The notes under the pieces were generated by a model. That model was not told the origin of the DNA. It made no database searches and worked only from the letters and a program-made list of their open reading frames with translations. Below are positions 3,001 through 31,660 of a stretch of DNA of 64,000 bases, in pieces. Every line of letters starts with the position of its first letter. Position 1 is the first letter of the stretch. The position numbers and the translations under genes were made by a program. The stretch is from Naegleria gruberi (lineage: Eukaryota): NCBI GenBank assembly GCA_000004985.1, contig GG738894.1; one strand, written 5' to 3'.

Positions 3001-6000
3001 NNNNNNNNNNNNNNNNNNNNNNNNNNNNNNNNNNNNNNNNNNNNNNNNNNNNNNNNNNNNNNNNNNNNNNNNNNNNNNNNNNNNNNNNNNNNNNNNNNNN
3101 NNNNNNNNNNNNNNNNNNNNNNNNNNNNNNNNNNNNNNNNNNNNNNNNNNNNNNNNNNNNNNNNNNNNNNNNNNNNNNNNNNNNNNNNNNNNNNNNNNNN
3201 NNNNNNNNNNNNNNNNNNNNNNNNNNNNNNNNNNNNNNNNNNNNNNNNNNNNNNNNNNNNNNNNNNNNNNNNNNNNNNNNNNNNNNNNNNNNNNNNNNNN
3301 NNNNNNNNNNNNNNNNNNNNNNNNNNNNNNNNNNNNNNNNNNNNNNNNNNNNNNNNNNNNNNNNNNNNNNNNNNNNNNNNNNNNNNNNNNNNNNNNNNNN
3401 NNNNNNNNNNNNNNNNNNNNNNNNNNNNNNNNNNNNNNNNNNNNNNNNNNNNNNNNNNNNNNNNNNNNNNNNNNNNNNNNNNNNNNNNNNNNNNNNNNNN
3501 NNNNNNNNNNNNNNNNNNNNNNNNNNNNNNNNNNNNNNNNNNNNNNNNNNNNNNNNNNNNNNNNNNNNNNNNNNNNNNNNNNNNNNNNNNNNNNNNNNNN
3601 NNNNNNNNNNNNNNNNNNNNNNNNNNNNNNNNNNNNNNNNNNNNNNNNNNNNNNNNNNNNNNNNNNNNNNNNNNNNNNNNNNNNNNNNNNNNNNNNNNNN
3701 NNNNNNNNNNNNNNNNNNNNNNNNNNNNNNNNNNNNNNNNNNNNNNNNNNNNNNNNNNNNNNNNNNNNNNNNNNNNNNNNNNNNNNNNNNNNNNNNNNNN
3801 NNNNNNNNNNNNNNNNNNNNNNNNNNNNNNNNNNNNNNNNNNNNNNNNNNNNNNNNNNNNNNNNNNNNNNNNNNNNNNNNNNNNNNNNNNNNNNNNNNNN
3901 NNNNNNNNNNNNNNNNNNNNNNNNNNNNNNNNNNNNNNNNNNNNNNNNNNNNNNNNNNNNNNNNNNNNNNNNNNNNNNNNNNNNNNNNNNNNNNNNNNNN
4001 NNNNNNNNNNNNNNNNNNNNNNNNNNNNNNNNNNNNNNNNNNNNNNNNNNNNNNNNNNNNNNNNNNNNNNNNNNNNNNNNNNNNNNNNNNNNNNNNNNNN
4101 NNNNNNNNNNNNNNNNNNNNNNNNNNNNNNNNNNNNNNNNNNNNNNNNNNNNNNNNNNNNNNNNNNNNNNNNNNNNNNNNNNNNNNNNNNNNNNNNNNNN
4201 NNNNNNNNNNNNNNNNNNNNNNNNNNNNNNNNNNNNNNNNNNNNNNNNNNNNNNNNNNNNNNNNNNNNNNNNNNNNNNNNNNNNNNNNNNNNNNNNNNNN
4301 NNNNNNNNNNNNNNNNNNNNNNNNNNNNNNNNNNNNNNNNNNNNNNNNNNNNNNNNNNNNNNNNNNNNNNNNNNNNNNNNNNNNNNNNNNNNNNNNNNNN
4401 NNNNNNNNNNNNNNNNNNNNNNNNNNNNNNNNNNNNNNNNNNNNNNNNNNNNNNNNNNNNNNNNNNNNNNNNNNNNNNNNNNNNNNNNNNNNNNNNNNNN
4501 NNNNNNNNNNNNNNNNNNNNNNNNNNNNNNNNNNNNNNNNNNNNNNNNNNNNNNNNNNNNNNNNNNNNNNNNNNNNNNNNNNNNNNNNNNNNNNNNNNNN
4601 NNNNNNNNNNNNNNNNNNNNNNNNNNNNNNNNNNNNNNNNNNNNNNNNNNNNNNNNNNNNNNNNNNNNNNNNNNNNNNNNNNNNNNNNNNNNNNNNNNNN
4701 NNNNNNNNNNNNNNNNNNNNNNNNNNNNNNNNNNNNNNNNNNNNNNNNNNNNNNNNNNNNNNNNNNNNNNNNNNNNNNNNNNNNNNNNNNNNNNNNNNNN
4801 NNNNNNNNNNNNNNNNNNNNNNNNNNNNNNNNNNNNNNNNNNNNNNNNNNNNNNNNNNNNNNNNNNNNNNNNNNNNNNNNNNNNNNNNNNNNNNNNNNNN
4901 NNNNNNNNNNNNNNNNNNNNNNNNNNNNNNNNNNNNNNNNNNNNNNNNNNNNNNNNNNNNNNNNNNNNNNNNNNNNNNNNNNNNNNNNNNNNNNNNNNNN
5001 NNNNNNNNNNNNNNNNNNNNNNNNNNNNNNNNNNNNNNNNNNNNNNNNNNNNNNNNNNNNNNNNNNNNNNNNNNNNNNNNNNNNNNNNNNNNNNNNNNNN
5101 NNNNNNNNNNNNNNNNNNNNNNNNNNNNNNNNNNNNNNNNNNNNNNNNNNNNNNNNNNNNNNNNNNNNNNNNNNNNNNNNNNNNNNNNNNNNNNNNNNNN
5201 NNNNNNNNNNNNNNNNNNNNNNNNNNNNNNNNNNNNNNNNNNNNNNNNNNNNNNNNNNNNNNNNNNNNNNNNNNNNNNNNNNNNNNNNNNNNNNNNNNNN
5301 NNNNNNNNNNNNNNNNNNNNNNNNNNNNNNNNNNNNNNNNNNNNNNNNNNNNNNNNNNNNNNNNNNNNNNNNNNNNNNNNNNNNNNNNNNNNNNNNNNNN
5401 NNNNNNNNNNNNNNNNNNNNNNNNNNNNNNNNNNNNNNNNNNNNNNNNNNNNNNNNNNNNNNNNNNNNNNNNNNNNNNNNNNNNNNNNNNNNNNNNNNNN
5501 NNNNNNNNNNNNNNNNNNNNNNNNNNNNNNNNNNNNNNNNNNNNNNNNNNNNNNNNNNNNNNNNNNNNNNNNNNNNNNNNNNNNNNNNNNNNNNNNNNNN
5601 NNNNNNNNNNNNNNNNNNNNNNNNNNNNNNNNNNNNNNNNNNNNNNNNNNNNNNNNNNNNNNNNNNNNNNNNNNNNNNNNNNNNNNNNNNNNNNNNNNNN
5701 NNNNNNNNNNNNNNNNNNNNNNNNNNNNNNNNNNNNNNNNNNNNNNNNNNNNNNNNNNNNNNNNNNNNNNNNNNNNNNNNNNNNNNNNNNNNNNNNNNNN
5801 NNNNNNNNNNNNNNNNNNNNNNNNNNNNNNNNNNNNNNNNNNNNNNNNNNNNNNNNNNNNNNNNNNNNNNNNNNNNNNNNNNNNNNNNNNNNNNNNNNNN
5901 NNNNNNNNNNNNNNNNNNNNNNNNNNNNNNNNNNNNNNNNNNNNNNNNNNNNNNNNNNNNNNNNNNNNNNNNNNNNNNNNNNNNNNNNNNNNNNNNNNNN

Positions 6001-9000
6001 NNNNNNNNNNNNNNNNNNNNNNNNNNNNNNNNNNNNNNNNNNNNNNNNNNNNNNNNNNNNNNNNNNNNNNNNNNNNNNNNNNNNNNNNNNNNNNNNNNNN
6101 NNNNNNNNNNNNNNNNNNNNNNNNNNNNNNNNNNNNNNNNNNNNNNNNNNNNNNNNNNNNNNNNNNNNNNNNNNNNNNNNNNNNNNNNNNNNNNNNNNNN
6201 NNNNNNNNNNNNNNNNNNNNNNNNNNNNNNNNNNNNNNNNNNNNNNNNNNNNNNNNNNNNNNNNNNNNNNNNNNNNNNNNNNNNNNNNNNNNNNNNNNNN
6301 NNNNNNNNNNNNNNNNNNNNNNNNNNNNNNNNNNNNNNNNNNNNNNNNNNNNNNNNNNNNNNNNNNNNNNNNNNNNNNNNNNNNNNNNNNNNNNNNNNNN
6401 NNNNNNNNNNNNNNNNNNNNNNNNNNNNNNNNNNNNNNNNNNNNNNNNNNNNNNNNNNNNNNNNNNNNNNNNNNNNNNNNNNNNNNNNNNNNNNNNNNNN
6501 NNNNNNNNNNNNNNNNNNNNNNNNNNNNNNNNNNNNNNNNNNNNNNNNNNNNNNNNNNNNNNNNNNNNNNNNNNNNNNNNNNNNNNNNNNNNNNNNNNNN
6601 NNNNNNNNNNNNNNNNNNNNNNNNNNNNNNNNNNNNNNNNNNNNNNNNNNNNNNNNNNNNNNNNNNNNNNNNNNNNNNNNNNNNNNNNNNNNNNNNNNNN
6701 NNNNNNNNNNNNNNNNNNNNNNNNNNNNNNNNNNNNNNNNNNNNNNNNNNNNNNNNNNNNNNNNNNNNNNNNNNNNNNNNNNNNNNNNNNNNNNNNNNNN
6801 NNNNNNNNNNNNNNNNNNNNNNNNNNNNNNNNNNNNNNNNNNNNNNNNNNNNNNNNNNNNNNNNNNNNNNNNNNNNNNNNNNNNNNNNNNNNNNNNNNNN
6901 NNNNNNNNNNNNNNNNNNNNNNNNNNNNNNNNNNNNNNNNNNNNNNNNNNNNNNNNNNNNNNNNNNNNNNNNNNNNNNNNNNNNNNNNNNNNNNNNNNNN
7001 NNNNNNNNNNNNNNNNNNNNNNNNNNNNNNNNNNNNNNNNNNNNNNNNNNNNNNNNNNNNNNNNNNNNNNNNNNNNNNNNNNNNNNNNNNNNNNNNNNNN
7101 NNNNNNNNNNNNNNNNNNNNNNNNNNNNNNNNNNNNNNNNNNNNNNNNNNNNNNNNNNNNNNNNNNNNNNNNNNNNNNNNNNNNNNNNNNNNNNNNNNNN
7201 NNNNNNNNNNNNNNNNNNNNNNNNNNNNNNNNNNNNNNNNNNNNNNNNNNNNNNNNNNNNNNNNNNNNNNNNNNNNNNNNNNNNNNNNNNNNNNNNNNNN
7301 NNNNNNNNNNNNNNNNNNNNNNNNNNNNNNNNNNNNNNNNNNNNNNNNNNNNNNNNNNNNNNNNNNNNNNNNNNNNNNNNNNNNNNNNNNNNNNNNNNNN
7401 NNNNNNNNNNNNNNNNNNNNNNNNNNNNNNNNNNNNNNNNNNNNNNNNNNNNNNNNNNNNNNNNNNNNNNNNNNNNNNNNNNNNNNNNNNNNNNNNNNNN
7501 NNNNNNNNNNNNNNNNNNNNNNNNNNNNNNNNNNNNNNNNNNNNNNNNNNNNNNNNNNNNNNNNNNNNNNNNNNNNNNNNNNNNNNNNNNNNNNNNNNNN
7601 NNNNNNNNNNNNNNNNNNNNNNNNNNNNNNNNNNNNNNNNNNNNNNNNNNNNNNNNNNNNNNNNNNNNNNNNNNNNNNNNNNNNNNNNNNNNNNNNNNNN
7701 NNNNNNNNNNNNNNNNNNNNNNNNNNNNNNNNNNNNNNNNNNNNNNNNNNNNNNNNNNNNNNNNNNNNNNNNNNNNNNNNNNNNNNNNNNNNNNNNNNNN
7801 NNNNNNNNNNNNNNNNNNNNNNNNNNNNNNNNNNNNNNNNNNNNNNNNNNNNNNNNNNNNNNNNNNNNNNNNNNNNNNNNNNNNNNNNNNNNNNNNNNNN
7901 NNNNNNNNNNNNNNNNNNNNNNNNNNNNNNNNNNNNNNNNNNNNNNNNNNNNNNNNNNNNNNNNNNNNNNNNNNNNNNNNNNNNNNNNNNNNNNNNNNNN
8001 NNNNNNNNNNNNNNNNNNNNNNNNNNNNNNNNNNNNNNNNNNNNNNNNNNNNNNNNNNNNNNNNNNNNNNNNNNNNNNNNNNNNNNNNNNNNNNNNNNNN
8101 NNNNNNNNNNNNNNNNNNNNNNNNNNNNNNNNNNNNNNNNNNNNNNNNNNNNNNNNNNNNNNNNNNNNNNNNNNNNNNNNNNNNNNNNNNNNNNNNNNNN
8201 NNNNNNNNNNNNNNNNNNNNNNNNNNNNNNNNNNNNNNNNNNNNNNNNNNNNNNNNNNNNNNNNNNNNNNNNNNNNNNNNNNNNNNNNNNNNNNNNNNNN
8301 NNNNNNNNNNNNNNNNNNNNNNNNNNNNNNNNNNNNNNNNNNNNNNNNNNNNNNNNNNNNNNNNNNNNNNNNNNNNNNNNNNNNNNNNNNNNNNNNNNNN
8401 NNNNNNNNNNNNNNNNNNNNNNNNNNNNNNNNNNNNNNNNNNNNNNNNNNNNNNNNNNNNNNNNNNNNNNNNNNNNNNNNNNNNNNNNNNNNNNNNNNNN
8501 NNNNNNNNNNNNNNNNNNNNNNNNNNNNNNNNNNNNNNNNNNNNNNNNNNNNNNNNNNNNNNNNNNNNNNNNNNNNNNNNNNNNNNNNNNNNNNNNNNNN
8601 NNNNNNNNNNNNNNNNNNNNNNNNNNNNNNNNNNNNNNNNNNNNNNNNNNNNNNNNNNNNNNNNNNNNNNNNNNNNNNNNNNNNNNNNNNNNNNNNNNNN
8701 NNNNNNNNNNNNNNNNNNNNNNNNNNNNNNNNNNNNNNNNNNNNNNNNNNNNNNNNNNNNNNNNNNNNNNNNNNNNNNNNNNNNNNNNNNNNNNNNNNNN
8801 NNNNNNNNNNNNNNNNNNNNNNNNNNNNNNNNNNNNNNNNNNNNNNNNNNNNNNNNNNNNNNNNNNNNNNNNNNNNNNNNNNNNNNNNNNNNNNNNNNNN
8901 NNNNNNNNNNNNNNNNNNNNNNNNNNNNNNNNNNNNNNNNNNNNNNNNNNNNNNNNNNNNNNNNNNNNNNNNNNNNNNNNNNNNNNNNNNNNNNNNNNNN

Positions 9001-9860
9001 NNNNNNNNNNNNNNNNNNNNNNNNNNNNNNNNNNNNNNNNNNNNNNNNNNNNNNNNNNNNNNNNNNNNNNNNNNNNNNNNNNNNNNNNNNNNNNNNNNNN
9101 NNNNNNNNNNNNNNNNNNNNNNNNNNNNNNNNNNNNNNNNNNNNNNNNNNNNNNNNNNNNNNNNNNNNNNNNNNNNNNNNNNNNNNNNNNNNNNNNNNNN
9201 NNNNNNNNNNNNNNNNNNNNNNNNNNNNNNNNNNNNNNNNNNNNNNNNNNNNNNNNNNNNNNNNNNNNNNNNNNNNNNNNNNNNNNNNNNNNNNNNNNNN
9301 NNNNNNNNNNNNNNNNNNNNNNNNNNNNNNNNNNNNNNNNNNNNNNNNNNNNNNNNNNNNNNNNNNNNNNNNNNNNNNNNNNNNNNNNNNNNNNNNNNNN
9401 NNNNNNNNNNNNNNNNNNNNNNNNNNNNNNNNNNNNNNNNNNNNNNNNNNNNNNNNNNNNNNNNNNNNNNNNNNNNNNNNNNNNNNNNNNNNNNNNNNNN
9501 NNNNNNNNNNNNNNNNNNNNNNNNNNNNNNNNNNNNNNNNNNNNNNNNNNNNNNNNNNNNNNNNNNNNNNNNNNNNNNNNNNNNNNNNNNNNNNNNNNNN
9601 NNNNNNNNNNNNNNNNNNNNNNNNNNNNNNNNNNNNNNNNNNNNNNNNNNNNNNNNNNNNNNNNNNNNNNNNNNNNNNNNNNNNNNNNNNNNNNNNNNNN
9701 NNNNNNNNNNNNNNNNNNNNNNNNNNNNNNNNNNNNNNNNNNNNNNNNNNNNNNNNNNNNNNNNNNNNNNNNNNNNNNNNNNNNNNNNNNNNNNNNNNNN
9801 NNNNNNNNNNNNNNNNNNNNNNNNNNNNNNNNNNNNNNNNNNNNNNNNNNNNNNNNNNNN
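1..9860. other. Assembly gap (unbroken run of N)
   Basis: Positions 1-9860 are all n; real sequence starts at 9861. Confidence 1.
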
Positions 9861-11302
9861 TCCTTGACCACTCGAATATTAATACTCAATCTTTTTCTAT
9901 TTCTGATTTTGGTTTTCCTAATTTTGTTCTTTTTGGTTCGAATTGGCACTTTGTCAGACCAATACTCCTCTGTGTCATAGCCAGAGAGACTGGATTCTTC
10001 TTCGGTGGCTTCTTCTAGCTCAGTAAAAATTGTTTCGTTTTGGGATTCGGATTCGGGTATGGTAGTTACATCTTCATTTAGTTGTTTTTCTCTATCGTAC
10101 TGTCCTTTGTCATTTGTTTTTTCTAATTCCAAATCAACCTCAGTTCCCTCTTCATCTGAATCAAACTCATCGTCATCACTCAGTGAGCTATATTCATCAT
10201 CACTCGAAAAGTCTTCTTCACTTTCCGCTCCAGAATAAACCATTTGAGGTTCTGTCTTGTCCAAGTATTGTTGAGATGACAATGAAAATTGTTCTAACTC
10301 TTCTGTCAATTTGCTGTCCCATTTTAACCTTTTCCTTAATTTCTTAGCTACTGGAAGTTTATAAACTATATCACAAAAGTAGTTTTCAAAGTATGAGGAT
10401 GTTAGTTCAATGAGATGGGAGAAATTTTTTACTCCAATATTGTACAACATTAACTCAACTCCTGCCAATATTCTGCCAAGCCTTTTTCTTGTTCTGTCAT
10501 TGTAGCATGAATCATTTGTTCTGACATCAAGTACTTCACTACTATTTGCACTCTGCCTCGAGGTTGTAATAAATTTACTGTTGGGGAAGTTTGACATGTA
10601 CGATTGAGCTGCCAGTAATGTGTATGCTGGATCTACAGTTAACGAAAGTTGTTTCATGTTCATGACAGAATAAACATTTCCATTATTCTTAATAAAGGTT
10701 GAAGGGTGGTCTTTTTCTACAAATTGTGAGAAGTCCATTTCTCCATATTCCAAAGAATAATCAATATTCTCCAAGGCCTTCTTTGGTGCCTTTTTTTTTG
10801 GTGAACCTAATTCAGAAGAAGCAGCTCGTTTATTAGATTCCTGAGGTGTTGGTTCAGAATTTTCTAAAAAAGAAGATGGTAAAAAAGACGACTGGGTGCT
10901 TAATACATCAACATTTGAATCTTGAGTCAAATTGAGTCTTTGGGTATTTGAAATTGGAGATGTGTTATTGAAAGGAGTTGTCACATGTTGAATGTTGACT
11001 CGTTGTTGGAAGTTTGATGTTGGAGTTGTTGTTGTTTCATGTTGACCAATGTTAACTCGTTGTTGAAAGTATCTTACATGATTTGAGGTAGGAATAATGT
11101 GTTGAAGGATAGGTGTTGGACTCGGAGACACCACATAGTTTGGAGAGGTTATGTGGATTGGTATTTGAGATGTGGGTGTTGTGTTGAAGGCTCTGATATT
11201 GGGGCATGTTGCTGGTTGACAACGGAATGGGCTGTAGAGTAAGGGTGATCTGTATGATTGACGTTGGTTGATGATTACCTGATGGTTGACTTGTTGATTC
11301 AT
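9861..11302 (-). CDS. Hypothetical protein, 3' end lost in the gap (Q/T/P-rich N-terminus, acidic C-terminal part)
   Basis: I translated the minus strand by hand from the ATG at 11302 (MNQQVNHQVIINQRQSYRSPLLYSPF...). It stays open for about 480 codons until it meets the N gap (...KIRNRKRLSINIRVVK). It is absent from the ORF track because it has no stop. Track ORFs 10005-10238 and 10114-10347 (+) are its antisense shadows. There is an internal near-repeat (FQQRVNIGQHETTTTPTSN / FQQRVNIQHVTTP). No family was recognised. Confidence 0.6.
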
Positions 11303-11395
11303 TTTTTTGAATTTAAATTGAAACGGCTATATCTATTGAACAACAATTTCCATGTCTTTCTCGCAATTTGAATGATGACTAGACTTGATTGGATC

Positions 11396-12172
11396 TTACA
11401 CTGATGGTAGGGAGATGTAGTTAATTTTCATCCTATGTAACAAAACTTTTTGGCCAAATTTGCACGTGTTGTTGATAAGCTTAACCTGAAAGTTGCCCCA
11501 ATCATCATACTTATCCAAACATGGAAGACAATTCTTGAATCGAAATTGGATACATTCTTCCTTAACTTTAATACCATGCTTCTTAACAACTTGGAACCAT
11601 TGATTGAATACACCATTTGTTTCCTTCAATATCAAGTAAAAGACTGTTGGTAGACATGAACCAAGAGTAAGATGGTGGACTCTACTAGTGTTTCTCATTT
11701 CCAAATGATCATTAATGATAGAACGGGCACACTTGGCAAACATATCCCAAACCACTCTATAAACCTGTTTTACCTCACTTGAAATATCTGTCCAACATTG
11801 ATACTTTGGTGCATATGAATAAACTCCCTTTTCCAAAATAAAATCACACTCCTCATAATCACGTTCATCATCCTCATCCAAAATAACTTTCCTCTTCTTT
11901 GCCTTTGATTTAGATCTTTTTCCACTTGAACTTTGTTTGGTTTGTTCAGATGTTTGAAAGTCGGATGATGTTGAAAGATGAAAAACAAGTGATGGAGAAT
12001 TAGATGACGGAGAAGATGAAGAATTACTACTAATATTGATGCTAGTAAAAGATGGAGCATCAAACATGTCTAAAGTTCCTTCACAGAGTACAGTTTCATG
12101 GTTGTTCATTGTTAGTGTTGTTGATGTATTATGATATTTGTTTTGAGTTGAATTTGGTATGAACAAACGCAT
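11396..12172 (-). CDS. Hypothetical protein (Ser-rich, basic/acidic linker, Cys/Trp-containing C-terminal domain)
   Basis: Track ORF of 258 aa with a true ATG at 12172 and no in-frame interruptions. No recognisable domain. Confidence 0.55.
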   Translation of the reverse strand: MRLFIPNSTQNKYHNTSTTLTMNNHETVLCEGTLDMFDAPSFTSINISSNSSSSPSSNSPSLVFHLSTSSDFQTSEQTKQSSSGKRSKSKAKKRKVILDEDDERDYEECDFILEKGVYSYAPKYQCWTDISSEVKQVYRVVWDMFAKCARSIINDHLEMRNTSRVHHLTLGSCLPTVFYLILKETNGVFNQWFQVVKKHGIKVKEECIQFRFKNCLPCLDKYDDWGNFQVKLINNTCKFGQKVLLHRMKINYISLPSV

Positions 12173-13031
12173 TGTTGTATTTATTCATTTTTTTCAAAAT
12201 GGTTCAAGTTGGTTGTACGGCAACCATTACAGCAACTTGTCGTTTAATAAGAAAAGAGGCTGAAAAATATTGCAGTGAAATATTTTCTCCTCAATGTATT
12301 TATTTATTCTGTATTTCTTCTTTTTACTCCTCAAAAACTGTAATACAATTGATGGTTACTTTAACACATGCTCATTCACTACAGAAACACTCAAAAAAAA
12401 AACTAATTCTTTAATAAGGCTTTTAAAAAGCTTTAGAGATGGCACCTCATTCCCGGCACGCATGGTAATCATGGCCTGTATTCAATCGGTGTTGAATTCA
12501 GTTGTGGAAATCAGAGGATTCCACTGCCAAGCAAGTACTTTTCTGGCATCTCTATGAGGTGCTGATCTGGGCAGCTTTTCTTTTTTCTTATGCTGTATGC
12601 TCCTTTGTCAAGAAGCACAATAGATTTGATAGTGATGACTTGATAAATAGGTGAAGAAGGGAAATTTTCATAAACCGTTATGGTTTGAAAAAACTGACTT
12701 CCACTGTTTACTGGAACAAAATCTACAGAATACAGAATACGGATTCTGTCATTTTGCAAAACATTTTCTGATTAGGGCCAAACTTAATCCTCTAACATGT
12801 TCAACATACTTCTAATTACTGTAAATCACTTGGGTATTGTTTCGGACCGGTAGAACTATTCATGAATATTGGCAACTTCCACCAATCAAAGGATCCATGG
12901 AAGGACGCACCTCTGCGGAGGTTCATTTATGTTATCTTGCAATATCCTGTTCATGTTCAAATGAGACAATTAAATTGGTATATAGGGCAACACAGGAGGC
13001 AACAATAGAAATTAGAAAGGCACCAAAAAAA

Positions 13032-16000
13032 ATGCACAATATTAGTATCTCCTATTGGTGTGTTGTGATATTGTTATTCATCTGTTTTGCACAACCTTTT
13101 TTACTGCAGAGGAGTTGTGTTGTTGTTGCAGAGGAGTATCAATTACATTCCCTGACAGGACATAAAGGAAATGGACAAGATTTTGACAGGACATTCTCTG
13201 CTAAACATGCCTTTCTGGCAGAACCGTGTGGAATTTGTTTTGGACTAAATGATGAAATTTACATTTCAGATTGTGTAAGAAACTATATTTTCAAGATATT
13301 TCCAAATGAAAGTATGATTGTGTTTGGAGGGTTGGGCAGTACGGGATTCAATCAGGATGGTTATGATGTAAAACAAACTCTTTTCGACTCTCCTTCATCA
13401 TTGAGTGTGGCACCTAATGGTGATTTATATATTGCTGATACGAACAATGATAAGATTCGTGTGGTTTCGGCGGAGACAAGATTGGTTTCATCATTGCCAT
13501 TCACTTTCAAACATCCATTGGGAGTGTTTGCTTCCTCTAACAACATGCTTTATATTGCAGGTAAGTTGTCTTTTGCTATTTCATACGAAACCAAAATAGA
13601 TACTGGAAACAATATGATAAAGAAATATGATATTTCCCAAAAGGTATTGACAACTATTGCTGGAGGAACTGGTTATTTGGATGGATCATATGATAATGTT
13701 GATGGAAATTCAATCATTCTTCACTCACCAAAGAATATTCATGTTGTTTCGAGTGGTAAAGATGACACTGTTTATTTCACTGATGAAGAAAGACTAAAAT
13801 TAATTGATAGCAATGGAAAATATCGTGTGATTGCCATTCCTGAACTTAAATCCAATTTGTAAGTGTCCACTGCTTTTTTTATTGTTCATTTTACAATTCA
13901 AATTCACAAAGATATGGAATAGCTGTAACATCAGCGAATGAAATATGGACATCTTCAGATAGACAACATTTCATTCAAATGAATTCCATTGGATCTTCAC
14001 AACCTTCAACAATTATTGGTGAAAAAGATTCTTTTGGATACGAAGGTGATAATTTGATTGATTCCTTTTCGAGTGTGAGATTTTATGAACCTCGATCTTT
14101 GATAGTGAAAGATTCAATTATTCTAGTTATTGATAGGTATAATAATTGTGTGAGAAAGATTGATACACAGAAAAAGACAGTTTCAACATTCTCTGGAGGA
14201 TTAATTAATCATTCATATGGTGAAGACATTCCCAGATTTGAGGTGTCACCACTCAATACATTATATAGACCATTCACATACAAGAATGAGTTGTACTTCA
14301 TAGAGCAAAATTATATAATTAGAAAGGTTTCGAACAATGATGGGCTTATCAAGACAATATTTGGATCGGGTATTCAATTGAGAACTGAAAATTCACCAAC
14401 AAGAGTCTTTAGGTATATCGCAAGTGTTTTCTGTTTTCCAAATGGAGATTTAGTAATTACTAGTTCAAACGAATTCTATATTCTCAATTTAGAAACATTT
14501 ACAATGCAGAAAATTACTAATGTTGGCCCCAAGACAATTCTTTCAATTTCAGCAATAGTTGGCATTGGGAATTCTTTCAAGAATAGCACTATATATTTCT
14601 CCAATGAAGGTACTATTTACAAATATCAGAATGAAAGTGTTCAAGACTCCATGCCAACAGGTTTGGTGCCATCTAACCTTGCAATTTTGAACAATGATTT
14701 ATACTTTTCTACATCAGGATATCTTGTAAAAGTTAATTGGAACGAAACTACTACTTTGATAGCCGTTCCAAGGGGTGTTAACAGGATATCACAAGATTCC
14801 AAAACTGGAAAGATTTATCTTTCCAATACATACAGACTCTACGAAGCAAACGTAAGTAATTTCAGAGTTGAAAAGGTTGCTGGTGTCGATCCATTTGAAT
14901 ATTCTGTTGGGAATAGCATTGATTTTTTTGGATATAGTGGTGAGAATGTGAATGCTAACCAATCGGTAATGTAAGTAGCTCTTTTACAAATGTTATTCGA
15001 AATATTATGTATCAATTAGCTCTGTTTCTTTTATACATGCTGACAATGATAATGTTTATCTCTCTACTGCTTCCTCATACATACGTGTGATATATAATGG
15101 AGTTGTGCGCACTGTTGTGGGAAGTAGTCCATTTTCGAAAAAAACTGGAAGAACCCTATATTCATTTTGTAGAGATCCTATTAATGAAATTATTTACATG
15201 TTGGACAATAATGTGTTGAAGAAGTATGATGAGAAAACAGGAGAAGTTACATCTCTTCTGCCAGCTGTTGAAGTAATTTCATCAAATTCGTTAGTTCAAA
15301 CAAGTGCTTCTCCTTTTTTAGCAATTAAACCAAAGACTGACACGAAAATGATATTCTCAACATTTGATAACATGATATATTTCTCTGATTATTGTAGAAT
15401 ATTACAAATTGACCCAAAAACATTGAAATATCAAAAAGTGGCGGGAAGTATGTGTGGAGATGTAATACCAGATATTCCAGCTATACAATCTCCTTTACCT
15501 ACAAATCCCCCAAAAGGCCTTTCAGTTAATCCTGTAAATGGTGATCTCTACATTAGTTATGCTGATTTTTTTGGAAAGCTTGAAAAGACTTCAGGTATGA
15601 TTCGTGCATTATTTAGGAGTTTTCCATTTAGTCCAATAGAACCAAGTGATGGTCATGTTGGAAATAGCACTTTTATTGGGACGATCTCAACTTCCTATGC
15701 CATTAGTGATCAGACAATTTACTTTAGCACAAATACAAAAATTAGAGTTTTGGAGCTAGCTCAAAATGGTTCATACTACCTCAGAACTATTGTTGGAGAT
15801 GGGAATGGCGGATATTCAGGTGATAATTTACCTGCATTGAGTTCATCTGTACAAAACCCAAAGGCATTCCATGTTAAAAAGAATGGGGATATTGTATTTG
15901 TGGATGAAGGAAATTACCTTATTAGAAAATTTGTAAAAGCAACAGGTCTATTGAAGAATATAGCAGGAAAACCTCGTCAAATGACAGGTTATTATTCAGG

Positions 16001-17422
16001 AGAGTTGAAAGGGCTAGATACAATCTTTATTAATTTGGGATATTCATTTAGTTTCAATGAGAAAACAGAAGAAACTATTTTTTCTGAACACTCAGTTATT
16101 GACACATTCCTTATTAGAAAGCTTTCTCCTATCTGTGAAGGAGGAGCACGCTTCAATTCATTCAATAATACTTGTGACTGTTTGAGTGGATTTTATGGAG
16201 AGAAATGTCAAGCAATTACTTGCAATGGAACAATATCATCAGATGCAACAAGTTGTAATGGAAAGGGAACTTGTGTTGAATTAGATGTTTGTGAATGTTT
16301 GAATGGATTTGAAGGGCAGTATTGTGAAAAATCTATTGACAAGTTGGCAACCGATCAGTCAACAATTTTGATTGTTTCCATTGTCATTCCTATTCTTGGA
16401 GTAGGTCTGATTATCGTGATATTGATTGTAATTATTGTCATAGCATTACTACTTTTCAAAAAGAAGAAATCAAAGGAAATTAATGAAATTGCAACTGCAA
16501 ACATTGTGGAAATGTCAGAATTTCCAAGTAGTTCAATCATTATTTCATCATCACTTGGTTCTGACATGTCAGAAAAGGAAGACATACTTTCTAGGTATAT
16601 TAATATGATTAGAGTTGGGCAAGGCGCATTTGGAAGTGTTTTCAAAGTGACAGATACAAAGAGTGGAAATAAGGTAAAAGCAATCAAGATTGTGAGATTT
16701 GAATCATTCACCGATTTGAACACAATTATGAAAGAAGCATCTCAATTGAGTAATATCAATCATCCAAATATATTGCGAGTGAATGATTATTTCATCACTA
16801 ATGACAATTTGCTTTGTATAGATATGGATTATTATGAGAATGGTGACTTGACAAGGTTTACAAAGAAGGAAATATGTTCTGAAGATATTATTCGCAAGAT
16901 TATGAAACAAATGTTAAGTGCATTGAATTATGTCCACTCAGAATTGTCAATCATTCATAGAGATATCAAACCTTCAAATATTTTTATTCGAAAACTTTCT
17001 GGAAATGACATTGAAGTTGTTTTAGCTGATTTTGGATTGGCTAAAAAGTATCAAGAAATGAAAGGTCAATCCTATGCTGGAACTCCACTTTTTATGAGGT
17101 TTGTTTTATAATTATGCATTAGTTTTAAACTTTTTAAAGTCCTGAAATTGCACTGGGCAGCTCATATTCATTCAATACTGATATTTTCTCACTGGGAGTT
17201 TCGATTTATCAAATCATGACAAAAGACGAAACCATTCCTATTGGAAATTTATTGATGGGAAATCAATTAGCAAATGCAGAAGCCATTCTCACCCAACAAA
17301 TGAAACAGAATACTAGTTACTCGAATGAATTGATTGAAATTGTTATGAAAATGTTGGATAAGAATCAAGAAACTCGATCAAGTGCTGTTCAACTTCTTCA
17401 AATGCCTTATTTCAAACACTAA
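13032..17422 (+). CDS. Receptor-like Ser/Thr protein kinase with an NHL-repeat ectodomain and EGF-like modules
   Basis: Exons are 13032-13560, 13600-13858, 13912-14970, 15020-17098 and 17140-17422, joining track ORFs 12837.., 13979.., 15087.. and 17216... The GT..AG introns are 39, 53, 49 and 41 nt, and all junction phases were checked against the track frames. The N-terminus is signal-like (MHNISISYWCVVILLFICFA). NHL-type motifs recur (LYIADTNNDKIRVV; splicing restores LYIAD|TGNNMIKKYD). EGF-like Cys patterns are present (CDCLSGFYGEKCQ, CECLNGFEGQYCE). A TM helix follows (ILIVSIVIPILGVGLIIVILIVIIVIALLLF). Kinase motifs are GQGAFGSV, AIK, HRDIKPSN, DFG and GTPLFM|SPE, the last restored by the final splice. 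Confidence 0.9.
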
Positions 17423-17526: not shown

Positions 17527-18660
17527 CTAATAGCTCTCTGATTTGTTGAACTTATTTGCTCCCCACAGTAGTGAATTCTCATGATTTAGTCCTTGATCAC
17601 CAATTCTATTGCCACGAATATTAAGTGATGTTAATTGTTTCATTTCACTTATATATTTGGCTCCTTCTACACCAATTCGATTGCCACGAATATTAAGTGA
17701 TGTTAATTGTTTCATTTCACTAATGAATTTGACTTTGCCACAAATATTAAGTGATGTTAATTGTTTCATTTCACTAATGAATTTAGCTCCTTCATCACCA
17801 GTTCTATTGTAAGAAATATTAAGTGATGTTAATTGTTTCATTTCACTAATGTATTTGACTCCTTCTATACCAATTTCATTTTCAGAAATATTAAGTGATG
17901 TTAATTGTTTCATTTCACTAATGAATTTAGCTCCTTCTATACCAATGAGAGTGTAATAAATATTAAGTGATGTCAATTGTTTCATTCCACTTATATATTT
18001 GGCTCCTTCATCGCCAATTATATTGTAAGAAATATCAAGTGATGTTAATTGTTTCATTTCACTTATATATTTGGCTCCTTCATCGCCAATTTCATTTTCA
18101 CGAATATTAAGTGATATTAATTGTTTCATTTCACTGATATATTTAGCTCCTTCATCACCAATTACATTGTAAGAAATATTAAGTGATGTTAATTGTTTCA
18201 TTTCACTGATATATTTGGCTCCTTCTACACCAATTCGATTGCCACGAATATTAAGTGATGTTAATTGTTTCATTTCAGTTACGAATTTGAGTTGTTCTAT
18301 GGCTTCCAGCAAATTTGTTGAAAATTTAACATCAACAATACTATTCATAAACTGACTTTTCATGAATAATTCAACTCGTTTCTCTGTAATGTTGTTTTTA
18401 AATTGAATAACAAGTTTTGAACGTTCCTTGATCACATTAAAGAATTGTTTTGAAATTAAAGTACAATTATTTAAAATAAACCACGAATCATCAATCATGC
18501 AAATTATTTCAAAACAAATATCATCTGAAAATATTTCTTGTTCGAGTTTCACATGCTTTTTTACTTTCTCTTCCATATTATTATTATTATTGTTAGTGAA
18601 TATTTCCTCCGAATTAATTAATTGATGATTTTCAAAATCTTGTCTGTTTCGTTTGCTCAT
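17527..18660 (-). CDS. Leucine-rich repeat protein (RI/LRR_6-like 24-aa repeats) with an F-box-like N-terminal region
   Basis: ORF of 377 aa with ATG at 18660. It has about 10 tandem units of MKQLTSLNIxxNxIGxEGAKYISE. The N-terminal segment IFSDDICFEIICMIDDSWFILNNCTLISKQFFNVI is F-box-like. It is a paralogue of 49469-50320. Confidence 0.9.
   Translation of the reverse strand: MSKRNRQDFENHQLINSEEIFTNNNNNNMEEKVKKHVKLEQEIFSDDICFEIICMIDDSWFILNNCTLISKQFFNVIKERSKLVIQFKNNITEKRVELFMKSQFMNSIVDVKFSTNLLEAIEQLKFVTEMKQLTSLNIRGNRIGVEGAKYISEMKQLTSLNISYNVIGDEGAKYISEMKQLISLNIRENEIGDEGAKYISEMKQLTSLDISYNIIGDEGAKYISGMKQLTSLNIYYTLIGIEGAKFISEMKQLTSLNISENEIGIEGVKYISEMKQLTSLNISYNRTGDEGAKFISEMKQLTSLNICGKVKFISEMKQLTSLNIRGNRIGVEGAKYISEMKQLTSLNIRGNRIGDQGLNHENSLLWGANKFNKSESY
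17586..18273 (-). repeat. Tandem 72-bp (24-codon) coding repeat array of the LRR gene
   Basis: The near-identical string ttaagtgatgttaattgtttcatttcact recurs every 72 nt. One unit is shortened by 18 nt (protein ...LNICGKVKFISE). Confidence 0.9.
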
Positions 18661-18747: not shown

Positions 18748-20769
18748 CTACAATATTTCTCTTTGCATCATAATCAGTCCAAAAAGGACTTGATGCAGCA
18801 CTGATAGTTCAACTCGTTCTTGCAAACAGGTATCTCTGAATCGGATAGTCACAGTTGCATTCAATAAACTCTCTTCATCAATAGTGATGGCAATAGGAAT
18901 TCCAATTTCATCAGCACGTTTATATTTCTTTCCAATTGAGTGTGCACTTTCATCATGTTTGAAGGGAATGGAAAGAGTTCTTATAATTTTAGTAACCTTT
19001 TCTAGTACCATCTTTTCCTCATTAGTTTTGACTTTACAGTTAGAAACCAGTAATACCTTGATTGGAGCCAACTGACTTGGTAAAGAAAGAATAGGCCTTT
19101 CCTCATCTCGAGTCCAAAATACATGTTCCAATAAGCTCAATAATATTCTACTAACAGAAAATGAAAGATCAATGATGTGAGGAGTAATCTTTTCTCCATA
19201 AACTTTTTTCACACATTCCACAAACGAAATATCATCTTTGGATAATTGGAAATTCTTTCCATTGATATCAAGTGAGATTTTGTGGTTGGTTTCCAACTCT
19301 GTTTGATATTGAGATTTCTTCTCCTTAGATAGTCCACTAAGGTGCTCTAACAGTATTTTGGTATCATTCTTGTAACGTTTTCCAAGCTTTTGATGTGAAA
19401 ACTCCACAACTATTTCTCTCTCCTCAAGAGGTTCATCAAATGAATCAAATAGAGAGAGATCAGAGTTAGAATGTTGAGAATGTTGCAGCAAATCGTAACC
19501 TGCTTTGGATTGAACATTAACAACCTCTACCCAACCAATGGTTGTCAACACCTCACATGTCCACAACTGCTCCAATCTATATGAAAATTGTTTTCGAAAC
19601 CGTATTCCTTCACTCAAAAATCCACATTCCTCCATGAATTCTTGTGTTCTGGCAAGATAGTAAGCCAATGATTTGTTAGCTATGAATTCTTGTTCCGCAG
19701 CATCTTTGATCGAAATCTTGGTTTCTTCATCATTTGAATCTAAAAGCAATCTCACAATTACTTGCTCGACTTTCTTGGAGTACTTTTCACAATTATTTTT
19801 CTTTGCTCCATTGCAGAAATGCATTATTTTTGCGCTTGAATTTTCCCTCAGTTTCGAATAGTGGCCAGTAGTTGTAGAATTATCAAAAATGGACCCAACC
19901 TGTGCAACTGAAAAGGGTAACCGTTTTCCACCATATTCCCATAACCGCTTAATATTTGTGTAAACACCTTGATCGAGATCAGGTCTCAAATAAACACTTG
20001 TTCTACCTGTTACTCCAATTTGTGTTTTAATCGCAAACGTCCATTCAAATACTTCAGAAATTTGATTTCCATCCATACTCCTAATTCTAAACCTCTTAAT
20101 AATATTATTCATGGCACCACCATCATAAGAATGAAGATTTGCAAGAATTTCTCTGAAATGTTTGATTTGAACACTTGTTAATAAATCCTCGTTGCCCAGC
20201 TTTTCCTGTATGAAATCCTCAATAACTTTGGTGGCAAGAATGATCTTATCAGTCTTCATATCTTTCACAATAAATTCATTAAAAGGAAAAAAGAATCCAA
20301 AAGCTCTGTAAACTTCATCAAGTACAAGTGAGCTCGTTTCCATTTCCATCATTTCTTCCTCCAATACGAAATGTTTCCTCCATAATCCAATCACATTATT
20401 CTTCAAATTGCATCCCAAAGGACCTAAATCCACCAAACCACTCACTCCACCATAAATTTCGAATGACGGTAATACGAAACAATTTTTCAATAAACATGCC
20501 CTTAATAACTGATCATTGAAATGTAATTTACTCGATTCGGAACACTTCTTTGCAATTATTTTCAATTCCAAATTTAATAATTTAATTCTCTCCTCATCAC
20601 GATCGGAAGAAGAATTAAAATTTGATAATTGTTGTAATTTTTCTTTGAATAATTGATTAATAGCAATTCGTTCTTCTAATGTTGCAATTTTAGGTTGATT
20701 GTTGGTGGTAGTTGTCGAAGAAATTGCATTTTCCGTTGATGTGTTGTTGCCTATCTGATTGTTGATCAT
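18748..20769 (-). CDS. Glycyl-tRNA synthetase-like protein (class IIa aaRS paralogue with degenerate catalytic motifs)
   Basis: The first ATG is at 20769; the track start at 20790 is GTG. The protein is collinear with eukaryotic GlyRS from the N-terminal core (FEIYGGVSGLVDLGPLGCNLKNNVIGLWRKHF) through YLRPDLDQGVYTNIKRL to the anticodon-binding domain (LAPIKVLLVS..., SIGKKYKRADEIGIPIAITID). The motif 2, AHYAxDCWD and motif 3 equivalents are altered; see findings. Confidence 0.85.
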   Translation of the reverse strand: MINNQIGNNTSTENAISSTTTTNNQPKIATLEERIAINQLFKEKLQQLSNFNSSSDRDEERIKLLNLELKIIAKKCSESSKLHFNDQLLRACLLKNCFVLPSFEIYGGVSGLVDLGPLGCNLKNNVIGLWRKHFVLEEEMMEMETSSLVLDEVYRAFGFFFPFNEFIVKDMKTDKIILATKVIEDFIQEKLGNEDLLTSVQIKHFREILANLHSYDGGAMNNIIKRFRIRSMDGNQISEVFEWTFAIKTQIGVTGRTSVYLRPDLDQGVYTNIKRLWEYGGKRLPFSVAQVGSIFDNSTTTGHYSKLRENSSAKIMHFCNGAKKNNCEKYSKKVEQVIVRLLLDSNDEETKISIKDAAEQEFIANKSLAYYLARTQEFMEECGFLSEGIRFRKQFSYRLEQLWTCEVLTTIGWVEVVNVQSKAGYDLLQHSQHSNSDLSLFDSFDEPLEEREIVVEFSHQKLGKRYKNDTKILLEHLSGLSKEKKSQYQTELETNHKISLDINGKNFQLSKDDISFVECVKKVYGEKITPHIIDLSFSVSRILLSLLEHVFWTRDEERPILSLPSQLAPIKVLLVSNCKVKTNEEKMVLEKVTKIIRTLSIPFKHDESAHSIGKKYKRADEIGIPIAITIDEESLLNATVTIRFRDTCLQERVELSVLHQVLFGLIMMQREIL

Positions 20770-21627: not shown

Positions 21628-23097
21628 ATGCCAGCCAATGTCGGAACTAGAAGAAAATTGAATCCAAATCTTAAGAAGGGATATGTAGCTCCACCAGTTG
21701 AAGATCATATCATCATTGAAGAGGATCAAAAGCAAAAATCACAACAACAACAACCTGTAAAAACAAAGAAGCAACAACAACCAATTGCTAATACTTCATC
21801 ACCAGCAACCACTACTACCACTAACAAGGTTGTTACCAATGCAAATGTACCAACAACAACAACAACAACAGCACCAAAAGCAAAGAATGTAAAATCATCA
21901 TCAGAATCACGTTTTGAAAAGTACGAAAAACAACATGAAGCCTTCATCAAGCAAATGGAAACATTCATGAAGTCCTTCCTTGATTTTGAAAAGGAGAGAT
22001 TGGCCTTCATGAAAGAACAATTCGGATCAAAGAGTGTTGGCACAACCACCACTACACAAACAACTGTGGCCAACAATAAGAAGGATAACAAGACAATTAC
22101 AGCCACAACAACAACTACACCAACAAAAACTACAACTCCTCCTCCAACTAACACAACTGTTAAAACAACAACAGCAACAGCAGCAACTACTACTCCTAAG
22201 AAAAAGACAACAGAACCAACCACAACTCCACAAAATAATACCAATGTAACATCACCAAAATCAACCAAGAATGAAGCAGCAAAGAATAAGGATCCTGCTG
22301 TTGATGCTTCTCCAACTAAGCAACAAACCAAGAAGGCAACAACTACTACTAGCCCTACCACTACTGCCACTACCACCACTACAACTGTACCAACAAAGAT
22401 TAGAGAATTGACTGTAACAAAAGATGAAATTTTTGATAATCTCAAAGTTGTCTATGTGAGTGGTGAAAACATCAAGGCAATTGCCGAGGCTAATAAGGTA
22501 TTCGATACTTTGGAAAAGAAGGATGCTGTATATGGATTTGACATTTTGTGGAATGCAAAGGAGGAAAAGACAATTAACGAAAGCCCAACCGAAACTCACA
22601 TCCTTGTACCAATCAGACTCATCTTATTGGCTAATCATGACACTGTCTTTGTTTATAGACCTCCAACTGCCGAAGAGATGCTTGCTGAAAAGATTGATAG
22701 ACCTCTCCCAGTAGCTCTTTACAAAATTCTCACTCAAAATCAATGTGTCAAGGTTTCATTTAATGCTATTGAAAAGGTCAACTACTTGTACCATAATTTG
22801 AACACTACCTATGTTAGTCATGTATCTGATATCAACTCCCTTTTCGTGAAGGAACCATATGGTTCTGCATTGGATATGTTAAGTAAGGAATTGGAATTAC
22901 CAACAGAACAAGTTTCCAAAGAGCTCAAAATGAGACATAATATTAATTATAGCAAGGAGCTCAGTAATGGCCAACTTGTCACAGTTGCCAAGAGATGTTG
23001 GTTGGAATTAAGACTTGTTGAAAAATTCTCTGAAAAACAAAAAACCAAGACAAATCTATTTGACTTTGTGACCAAAAACATGAAAATTGAAGATTAA
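21628..23097 (+). CDS. Thr/Gln-rich low-complexity protein with a C-terminal 3'-5' exonuclease-like (WRN-exo/RNase D-type) fold, apparently non-catalytic
   Basis: ORF of 489 aa starting at an ATG. Long poly-T/K/P low-complexity tracts explain the antisense V-rich ORF 21726-22445. The C-terminal ~220 aa follow the exonuclease pattern by eye (AVYGFDILW...ILLANHDTVFVY...CVKVSFNAIEKVNYL...YSKELSNGQLVTVAKRCW). The CDS call is solid; the domain call is tentative. Confidence 0.65.
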   Translation: MPANVGTRRKLNPNLKKGYVAPPVEDHIIIEEDQKQKSQQQQPVKTKKQQQPIANTSSPATTTTTNKVVTNANVPTTTTTTAPKAKNVKSSSESRFEKYEKQHEAFIKQMETFMKSFLDFEKERLAFMKEQFGSKSVGTTTTTQTTVANNKKDNKTITATTTTTPTKTTTPPPTNTTVKTTTATAATTTPKKKTTEPTTTPQNNTNVTSPKSTKNEAAKNKDPAVDASPTKQQTKKATTTTSPTTTATTTTTTVPTKIRELTVTKDEIFDNLKVVYVSGENIKAIAEANKVFDTLEKKDAVYGFDILWNAKEEKTINESPTETHILVPIRLILLANHDTVFVYRPPTAEEMLAEKIDRPLPVALYKILTQNQCVKVSFNAIEKVNYLYHNLNTTYVSHVSDINSLFVKEPYGSALDMLSKELELPTEQVSKELKMRHNINYSKELSNGQLVTVAKRCWLELRLVEKFSEKQKTKTNLFDFVTKNMKIED

Positions 23098-31587: not shown

Positions 31588-31660
31588 CGCCCCACGTGGG
31601 GCTCGAACCCACGACCGTTGGATTAAAAGTCCAACGCTCTACCGACTGAGCTAGCAGGGC
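31588..31660 (-). tRNA. tRNA-Lys-UUU: tRNA-Lys (anticodon UUU)
   Basis: The reverse complement is GCCCTGC TA GCTC AGTCGGTA GAGC G TTGGA CTTTTAA TCCAA CGGTC GTGGG TTCGAGC CCCAC GTGGGGC G. This folds into a full 73-nt cloverleaf. The acceptor stem has two G-U pairs, the T-loop is canonical and CCA is not encoded. Confidence 0.97.

Follow-up and report, generated by a model that had tools for sequence, protein, structure and literature searches.

A stretch of 64,000 nucleotides of Naegleria gruberi DNA (assembly GCA_000004985.1, contig GG738894.1; the whole stretch is called the window) was found to carry an uninterrupted gene for a paralogue of glycyl-tRNA synthetase (GlyRS) in which 15 of 19 key catalytic positions have been changed. 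The gene lies on the minus strand at 18748-20769, with its ATG at 20769 and its stop codon ending at 18748, and it encodes 673 amino acids (aa). The sequence features suggest that the product is probably a catalytically inactive GlyRS paralogue that has kept its fold and likely serves as a dimeric tRNA-binding, regulatory or scaffolding pseudo-synthetase. The product of this open reading frame (ORF) corresponds with 100% identity and full coverage to XP_002672955.1 (EFC40211.1, NAEGRDRAFT_51934, UniProt D2VSL1), which bears the NCBI name "predicted protein". The coordinates of the ORF and the peptide strings quoted in a first-pass annotation of the window were all present in the sequence.

Loss of catalytic residues

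An exhaustive search of 1.84 billion proteins was performed, the best 150 GlyRS-like cluster representatives were aligned, and 19 key positions were scored; residue changes are numbered according to human cytosolic GlyRS. The paralogue, with 15/19 positions changed, was an extreme outlier among these 150 representatives, most of which had 0-2 changes; the canonical GlyRS of N. gruberi had a single change (1/19). Residue roles were taken from a structural study of the Mycobacterium and human enzymes (PMC12208437). According to that study, the motif-2 arginine R277 binds the alpha-phosphate and the carbonyl, E279 binds adenine N6, F292 stacks against the adenine, E245, E296 and E522 hold the amino group of glycine, E298 is buried, and [AS]HY[AS] is the GlyRS lid motif (PMC12208437).

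Nearly every one of these elements was altered in the paralogue. Motif 2 showed the changes R277D, E279S, F292N, M294S, E296K and E298M, with charge reversals at R277D and E296K. All three glycine-binding glutamates were changed (E245D, E296K and E522D), and the RPETAQGIF loop carried T246L and F251Y in addition to E245D. The [AS]HY[AS] lid was lost and replaced by RLEQL with a 4-residue deletion, and the motif-1 proline was also lost (SLVLDE). Motif 3 (GxGxGR) carried E522D, G526S and G528S and reads SFSVSR. The alterations that the first-pass annotation had reported in TSGHVDKF (TSGH to AFGF), in the lid sequence AHYACDCWDAE and in GCADRS (which reads NVQSKA) were all confirmed, while its description of motifs 2 and 3 was correct in part. 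In motif 2, it had claimed the loss of both the FRNE arginine and REF; the FRNE arginine and the phenylalanine of REF are indeed gone, but the Arg-Glu of REF is kept (R290 and E291; the triplet reads R308-E309-N310 in paralogue numbering). In motif 3, where it had read LSFSVSRILL in place of PSFGLGRIMY, the flanking glycines are lost, but the implied loss of the arginine was wrong, as the invariant arginine (R541 of the paralogue) is retained together with S524. The ribose/metal-binding glutamate (E415 of the paralogue) is also retained.

As had been proposed, alignment with curated and canonical GlyRSs showed that the catalytic ligands had been lost and not merely shifted. In alignments with 5 to 150 sequences, non-equivalent residues occupied the key sites, and no substitute arginine, glutamate or phenylalanine was found nearby. 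With the glycine and ATP ligands replaced, as well as the lid, no canonical route to glycyl-adenylate is left. Judged by motif 2, the glycine-binding glutamates, the lid and the GxADR strand, the protein fails the defining catalytic features of glycine--tRNA ligase (EC 6.1.1.14). It is a homologue of the aminoacyl-tRNA synthetases (aaRSs) that has lost the catalytic residues, and the same genome encodes a canonical enzyme for glycine; these are the features of a pseudo-synthetase.

Homology, fold and domain structure

The paralogue had been described as collinear with eukaryotic GlyRS from the catalytic core to the anticodon-binding domain, and the searches bore this out. Residues 98-669 of the paralogue aligned with residues 72-652 of human GlyRS (E = 4.3e-89), and the NCBIfam model TIGR00389 (glyS_dimeric) matched with 411 bits against a cut-off of 243. 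A Pfam scan found the anticodon-binding domain PF03129 (E = 2e-15) and did not detect the class II core PF00587. An AlphaFold2 (AF2) model built from a 60-sequence alignment of canonical GlyRSs was confidently GlyRS-like (mean predicted local distance difference test score, pLDDT, 87.5; predicted template modelling score, pTM, 0.81). Foldseek matched this model to human GlyRS, to archaeal and bacterial alpha2 GlyRS and then to the Pol gamma accessory subunit, in that order. By descent, the paralogue belongs without doubt to the alpha2-type GlyRS homology family (class IIa).

The "MINN..." start of the paralogue aligns with the canonical GlyRS N-termini of Willaertia and N. lovaniensis. The first 28 residues do not resemble a mitochondrial presequence, because the sole charged residue before K27 is acidic (E12). 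No WHEP domain was matched by Pfam in the N-terminus even at E = 10, nor was one found in N. lovaniensis GlyRS; in the relative P0282, WHEP was found with E = 3.6e-13. At the other end of the protein, heterolobosean GlyRS carries a Lys-rich tail (...EQKQTASDKVGKK), which the alignment showed to be missing from the C-terminus of the paralogue. The domain coordinates are given in Table 1.

Modular conservation and selection

Conservation was counted over the 149 alignment columns with a conservation of 95% or more across 95 canonical eukaryote-type GlyRSs. The paralogue kept 17/20 such columns in the anticodon-binding domain and 19/25 in the N-terminal core with the motif-1 region, followed by 8/14 in the motif-3 region, 9/20 in the lid and strand region, 17/39 in the motif-2 region and 3/13 in insertion 1. 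These counts bear out the earlier statement that the anticodon-binding domain has been preserved far better than the active site. Retained elements of the anticodon-binding domain include GKKY.RADE.G and T.R.RD...Q.

The frame of the paralogue contained no internal stops, compared with 27-66 stops in each of the five alternative frames of this sequence, and the chance of an open frame of 673 codons at its base composition was 3e-25. Single-base changes that create a stop make up 5.7% of those in the coding sequence (CDS), and about 29 nonsense hits would be expected per 0.25 neutral substitutions per site. The G+C content (0.344) and third-position G+C content (0.303) were both typical of neighboring genes. 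When the N. gruberi gene was compared with its N. lovaniensis counterpart (described below), identity at four-fold sites was 0.26 against 0.28 expected from composition, which is saturation, and amino acid identity was 36%; the ratio of non-synonymous to synonymous substitution rates (dN/dS) between the two is not estimable because silent sites are saturated. The open frame, the saturated silent sites combined with 36% amino acid identity, and the uneven conservation indicate that the protein has been maintained by purifying selection, presumably for a non-catalytic role.

The canonical GlyRS of N. gruberi

The degeneracy of the paralogue had been taken to imply a separate, canonical GlyRS elsewhere in the genome, and such a gene was found. 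A search seeded with P0121, a heterolobosean-type GlyRS that was the best exhaustive match, retrieved XP_002675607.1 (P0287), a protein of 650 aa that is annotated as glycyl-tRNA synthetase and has both PF00587 and PF03129. It is encoded on a different scaffold (394,700 bp) from the one carrying the paralogue (499,907 bp). Its key positions were intact in 18/19 cases, and it is expected to perform the charging. As annotated, XP_002675607.1 begins about 70 residues later than its orthologues from N. lovaniensis, N. fowleri and Willaertia (718-725 aa, with a "MIN..." start), and its gene model is probably truncated at the N-terminus.

A paralogue at an intermediate stage of decay in N. lovaniensis

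The second most degenerate protein of the screen was XP_044543758.1 of N. lovaniensis, which has a 99%-identical sibling of 651 aa, XP_044546918.1. The two proteins are alleles of one locus, as their haplotigs have identical neighbors, and the canonical GlyRS gene of N. lovaniensis is likewise present on two haplotigs. The loci lie at 10001-11956 (L001) and about 9475-11365 (L002) of PYSW02000028.1 and PYSW02000044.1. The haplotigs differed at five coding sites (three synonymous and two non-synonymous), and their dN/dS is unusable because just these five sites differ.

Decay in the N. lovaniensis protein was intermediate, with 8/17 scored positions changed. Motif 2 was intact, E245D was present, the lid AHYA was replaced by SFST, ADRS by VNNY, and EPSFGIGR by ETTFHIGR. 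It shares E245D, T246L, F251Y, the loss of the lid motif and the loss of the C-terminal tail with the N. gruberi paralogue, whereas the two proteins are only about 35-36% identical. Unlike the N. gruberi paralogue, it has retained motif 2 (FRNE...REF...E) as well as the heterolobosean insertion that follows motif 3, and it is without the N-terminal extension. It is a probable orthologue of the N. gruberi paralogue.

Both N. lovaniensis proteins are named 'glycine--tRNA ligase' in UniProt. Given this naming, and since the N. gruberi protein passes the NCBI equivalog cut-off, automatic annotation will mislabel such proteins as glycine--tRNA ligase, a name that the N. gruberi protein should not be given; this could mislead counts of aaRS genes or lists of drug targets in Naegleria.

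Origin of the paralogue

The paralogue was 36-37.5% identical to the canonical GlyRSs of N. gruberi, Willaertia magna and N. lovaniensis and 27-33% identical to those of other eukaryotes. It also carried lineage signatures, namely the MINN... beginning, the KLH(F/I)N that precedes the core, FM(E/D)ECG, ITID(E/D) instead of ITIDF, and RD(S/T)C. In neighbor-joining (NJ) trees, the N. gruberi and N. lovaniensis paralogues were paired with 97-98% bootstrap support, and the pair fell within the Naegleria and Willaertia clade with 92-95% support.

Because both paralogue branches are long, topologies were also compared by maximum likelihood (ML), using ten topologies, a home-made rate matrix derived from BLOSUM62, four gamma categories and 629 columns. 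The best topology had the two paralogues as sisters; it was ahead by at least 16.7 log-likelihood (lnL) units, with a RELL (resampling of estimated log-likelihoods) support of 0.85. Branch lengths were 0.96 for the N. gruberi paralogue, 0.51 for the N. lovaniensis paralogue and 0.12-0.15 for the canonical enzymes, so that the N. gruberi branch was about 7 times the canonical one. An independent duplication in each species (topology T3) was rejected, being 34 lnL units worse with a RELL support of 0.000, and for neither paralogue did the number of derived states in common with the canonical enzyme of the same species exceed that of controls. Nine derived residues were exclusive to the paralogue pair, compared with 2-4 in control long branches, and three of the nine (E245D, T246L and F251Y) sit in the RPETAQGIF loop. 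Counts of exclusive residues made without the N. lovaniensis paralogue were discarded because they were dominated by compositional convergence with AT-rich Plasmodium. At the level of sequence, the trees and the shared residues place the duplication inside heterolobosean GlyRS and no later than the base of the Naegleria/Willaertia clade.

A horizontal or giant-virus origin, which had been considered on account of the leucine-rich repeat (LRR) neighbors and of a preprint on viral GlyRS, was ruled out by the phylogeny and the lineage signatures. When the window was compared with the N. lovaniensis paralogue loci by tblastx, nothing was shared except the gene itself, and the loci are thus not syntenic.

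Proposed role and alternative explanations

In the role that we propose, the paralogue would form a GlyRS-like dimer through its conserved motif-1 region, either with itself or with canonical GlyRS. Its class IIa domain would bind the anticodon stem-loop of a tRNA, probably tRNA-Gly, with no aminoacylation taking place, and the protein would act as a non-catalytic tRNA binder, regulator or scaffold instead of an enzyme. The first-pass annotation had called the pattern typical of aaRS paralogues recruited to non-catalytic roles. The outcomes of its predictions support that interpretation, and the non-catalytic role itself is what we infer from sequence. A more specific version, which we put forward as a speculative and rather unlikely one, is that the gene represents an old, dead cytosolic GlyRS lineage that predates the split of Naegleria and Willaertia and was kept as a tRNA-Gly-binding subunit, either forming an asymmetric one-site enzyme with canonical GlyRS or sequestering or sensing tRNA-Gly. 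If true, SLIMP and the GCN2 HisRS-like domain would have a cytosolic counterpart in a protist, and the protein would be the first full-length pseudo-GlyRS with translation-linked regulation.

Several observations weigh against an inactive paralogue with a retained function. Its dimerization and tRNA binding are suggested by conservation counts, and the AF2 model cannot show a functional pocket or interface because it was built from an alignment of canonical GlyRSs. The canonical GlyRS of N. gruberi is free of complementary loss, so an obligatory heterodimer of the SLIMP type is not required. In N. lovaniensis, one haplotig of the two has a 62-bp frameshifting deletion, which shortens the gene model to 454 aa. 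Database searches surfaced no orthologue of the paralogue in N. fowleri or Willaertia, though the canonical GlyRSs of both were present, and the paralogue lineage looks dispensable elsewhere. Without the N. lovaniensis paralogue, the placement of the N. gruberi paralogue in NJ trees was unstable because it was drawn to other long branches. Literature searches for NAEGRDRAFT_51934, XP_002672955, D2VSL1 and EFC40211 found no mention of these four identifiers; a search on Naegleria and GlyRS likewise found nothing relevant.

Some of these observations would fit a relic, that is, a duplicate whose function is gone and whose still-open frame is effectively neutral and on its way to a pseudogene, as may be happening in N. 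lovaniensis and would already have happened in N. fowleri and Willaertia. The patchy distribution of the paralogue among Naegleria and Willaertia, the frameshifted allele, the small excess of synonymous over non-synonymous differences between the haplotigs (3 vs 2), the very long N. gruberi branch and the erosion that progresses from the N. lovaniensis form (8/17) to the N. gruberi form (15/19) are all in its favor. However, a frame of 673 codons in DNA of 34% G+C cannot remain open neutrally when as little as 0.25 substitutions per site would be expected to bring about 29 nonsense hits and the terminal branch measures 0.96 amino acid substitutions per site. Conservation is also strongly domain-dependent, and third-position codon composition matches that of neighboring genes. 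Any neutral phase must therefore have been very recent, and we regard the relic as unlikely. Selection could instead have acted on a new function, with the remodeled pocket (D264, D296, S298, N310, K314, M316 and D534, with E415 and R541 kept) binding another small molecule or carrying out other chemistry, as in AsnA, HisZ, EpmA and the amino-acid:carrier-protein ligases. New chemistry and allosteric roles are well documented among aaRS paralogues (PMC9437257), the motif-3 arginine, E415 and R308/E309 survive, and the identical substitutions in the RPETAQGIF loop of two species hint at a selected new state over random decay. The motif-2 arginine, the adenine-stacking phenylalanine and the N6-binding glutamate are nevertheless gone and the lid is deleted, which makes adenylate chemistry unlikely. 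Outside that loop, the paralogues of N. gruberi and N. lovaniensis have different pocket residues and thus no new site in common, and a new enzyme or ligand sensor appears improbable.

Within the proposed role of a dimeric, inactive tRNA-binding protein, a sub-case is an obligate partner subunit, in which a heterodimer with canonical GlyRS would have one active site, like insect SLIMP with mitochondrial SerRS2. Among the modules of the paralogue, the motif-1 and dimer-interface region ranks second in conservation, and SLIMP itself offers a precedent (PMC10570016). The canonical N. gruberi GlyRS, however, keeps all its domains and nearly all its catalytic positions, and N. fowleri and Willaertia apparently manage without the paralogue, so we give an obligate partnership little weight. 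The opposite possibility is a GlyRS whose catalytic residues have shifted position and which still works, for example in an organelle or under stress, comparable to yeast GRS2. The collinearity of the paralogue over its full length and its TIGR00389 score, which exceeds the cut-off, would agree with this, and GRS2 is a precedent for a second, weakly active GlyRS gene (PMC3306390). Against it stand the key sites, all of which hold non-equivalent residues and have no replacement close by, the class II core that Pfam no longer recognizes, and an N-terminus that is not presequence-like. On these sequence features, a working enzyme is close to refuted.

Features of the gene and its surroundings

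The gene is intron-less in the annotated model (Table 1), and an in-frame GTG lies 7 codons 5' of the ATG.

Table 1. Features of the degenerate GlyRS paralogue and their positions in the window
Feature	Residues (aa)	Window positions	Strand	Basis
Complete CDS of degenerate GlyRS paralogue XP_002672955.1 (673 aa + stop, intron-less in annotated model)	1-673	18748..20769	-	ORF list, NCBI model match, stop counts
N/S/T-rich low-complexity N-terminus (MINNQIGNNTSTENAISSTTTTNNQPKI), predicted disordered	1-28	20686..20769	-	pLDDT < 50
Two helices at the site of the heterolobosean GlyRS WHEP-derived N-terminal extension	31-78	20536..20679	-	AF2 helices 31-49 and 56-78; alignment
N-terminal class II core, motif 1/dimer interface region (FEIYGGVSGLVDLGPLGC...WRKHFVLEEEMMEME), well kept	98-163	20281..20478	-	Conserved-column count, alignments
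RPDLDQGVY loop (RPETAQGIF, otherwise invariant)	262-270	19960..19986	-	Alignment
Degenerate motif 2, AQVGSIFDNSTTTGHYSKLRENSSAKIMHF	289-318	19816..19905	-	Alignment
Lid region, KQFSYRLEQL----WTCE vs RQHMxNEMAHYACDCWDAE	393-406	19552..19593	-	Alignment
Core strand, GWVEVVNVQSKAGYDL	412-427	19489..19536	-	Alignment
Degenerate motif 3, PHIIDLSFSVSRILLS	530-545	19135..19182	-	Alignment
Class IIa anticodon-binding domain (HGTP_anticodon), best-conserved part	560-668	18766..19092	-	PF03129; pLDDT 90-97

Located 88 bp downstream of the GlyRS-like gene, a gene on the minus strand (17527-18660) encodes an LRR_6 protein of 377 aa. It is composed of near-identical tandem units of 72 bp (24 aa) with 86-98% matches, which looks like recent repeat expansion or homogenization. 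The divergent neighbor on the plus strand (21628-23097) encodes 489 aa with long Thr/Pro/Lys-rich low-complexity tracts and had no Pfam match; an antisense ORF of 239 aa (21726-22445) is an artefact of its repeat composition. Farther away on the plus strand, an ORF at 15087-17111 encodes a receptor-like Ser/Thr kinase that has a transmembrane segment as well as EGF repeats. It stops within the kinase domain, which suggests an intron, and an upstream NHL-repeat ORF (12837-13862, plus strand) probably forms another exon of this gene. The sole tRNA gene that ARAGORN found in the window was a tRNA-Lys(UUU) at 31588-31660 on the minus strand. Positions 1-9860 are a continuous run of N (assembly gap).

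A further GlyRS-like protein with changed key positions, P0213 (585 aa), came from a 12.5-kb metagenome contig of ENA (ERZ26696514 ctg222327; L005 3404-5161). It had 7/19 key positions changed (R277K, E296S, R529K and others), Pfam recognized its anticodon-binding domain only, and an actin-like gene adjoins it. Its source is an AT-rich organism or a virus.

Comparison with known systems

Paralogues of aaRSs that have lost catalysis, such as HisZ, SLIMP, POLG2 and the HisRS-like domain of GCN2, are textbook examples of the reuse of an ancient fold. The finding concerns one lineage, and its wider importance would be modest unless a regulatory role is demonstrated.

The Naegleria paralogue resembles alpha2-type GlyRS, represented by human GARS1 and XP_002675607.1, in its helical N-terminal extension, its class II core with insertions 1-3 and its class IIa anticodon-binding domain, at 27-37% identity. 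It differs in the replacement of 15/19 positions, the deletion of the lid, the loss of the motif-1 proline and of the Lys-rich tail, and an approximately 7 times faster change. Yeast GRS2 is also a lineage-specific GlyRS duplicate that is dispensable under normal conditions; GlyRS2, however, is active (about 5-fold below GlyRS1) and stress-induced (PMC3306390), whereas the Naegleria paralogue is without the catalytic residues.

The first-pass annotation had cited the Pol gamma accessory subunit as a precedent for such a fold being reused. The analogy is fair for the fold, as POLG2 is a non-catalytic dimer with a class IIa aaRS-like fold and came directly behind the GlyRSs among the structural families matched (Foldseek E about 1e-20), but the paralogue is no relative of POLG2. 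POLG2 is only 12-15% identical to it and is a subunit of mitochondrial DNA polymerase gamma that binds the DNA polymerase and DNA; all matched POLG2 structures were from animals. Sequence matches to POLG2 covered the C-terminal domain only (E 4e-10 to 1e-4), and this restricted match, together with the phylogeny that nests the paralogue inside heterolobosean GlyRS, ruled out orthology. The Naegleria paralogue is an independent offshoot of GlyRS and a much younger one than POLG2.

As a mechanistic precedent, SLIMP is the nearest. Both are full-length paralogues of a class II aaRS with an ablated active site, and SLIMP has retained tRNA binding (PMC9437257, PMC10570016), as the sequence of the Naegleria protein suggests for it as well. 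SLIMP derives from another synthetase family, works in another compartment and is an obligate heterodimer partner whose companion subunit is without its own tRNA-binding domain, whereas the canonical GlyRS of N. gruberi is complete. For GlyRS, the entries in a review of aaRS duplications published in 2022 are limited to yeast GlyRS2, which is active, and the amino-acid:carrier-protein ligases; a dead GlyRS paralogue is not listed (PMC9437257). A dead full-length GlyRS with an intact anticodon-binding domain would add a new case, one in which two stages of decay are visible, intermediate in N. lovaniensis and extreme in N. gruberi.

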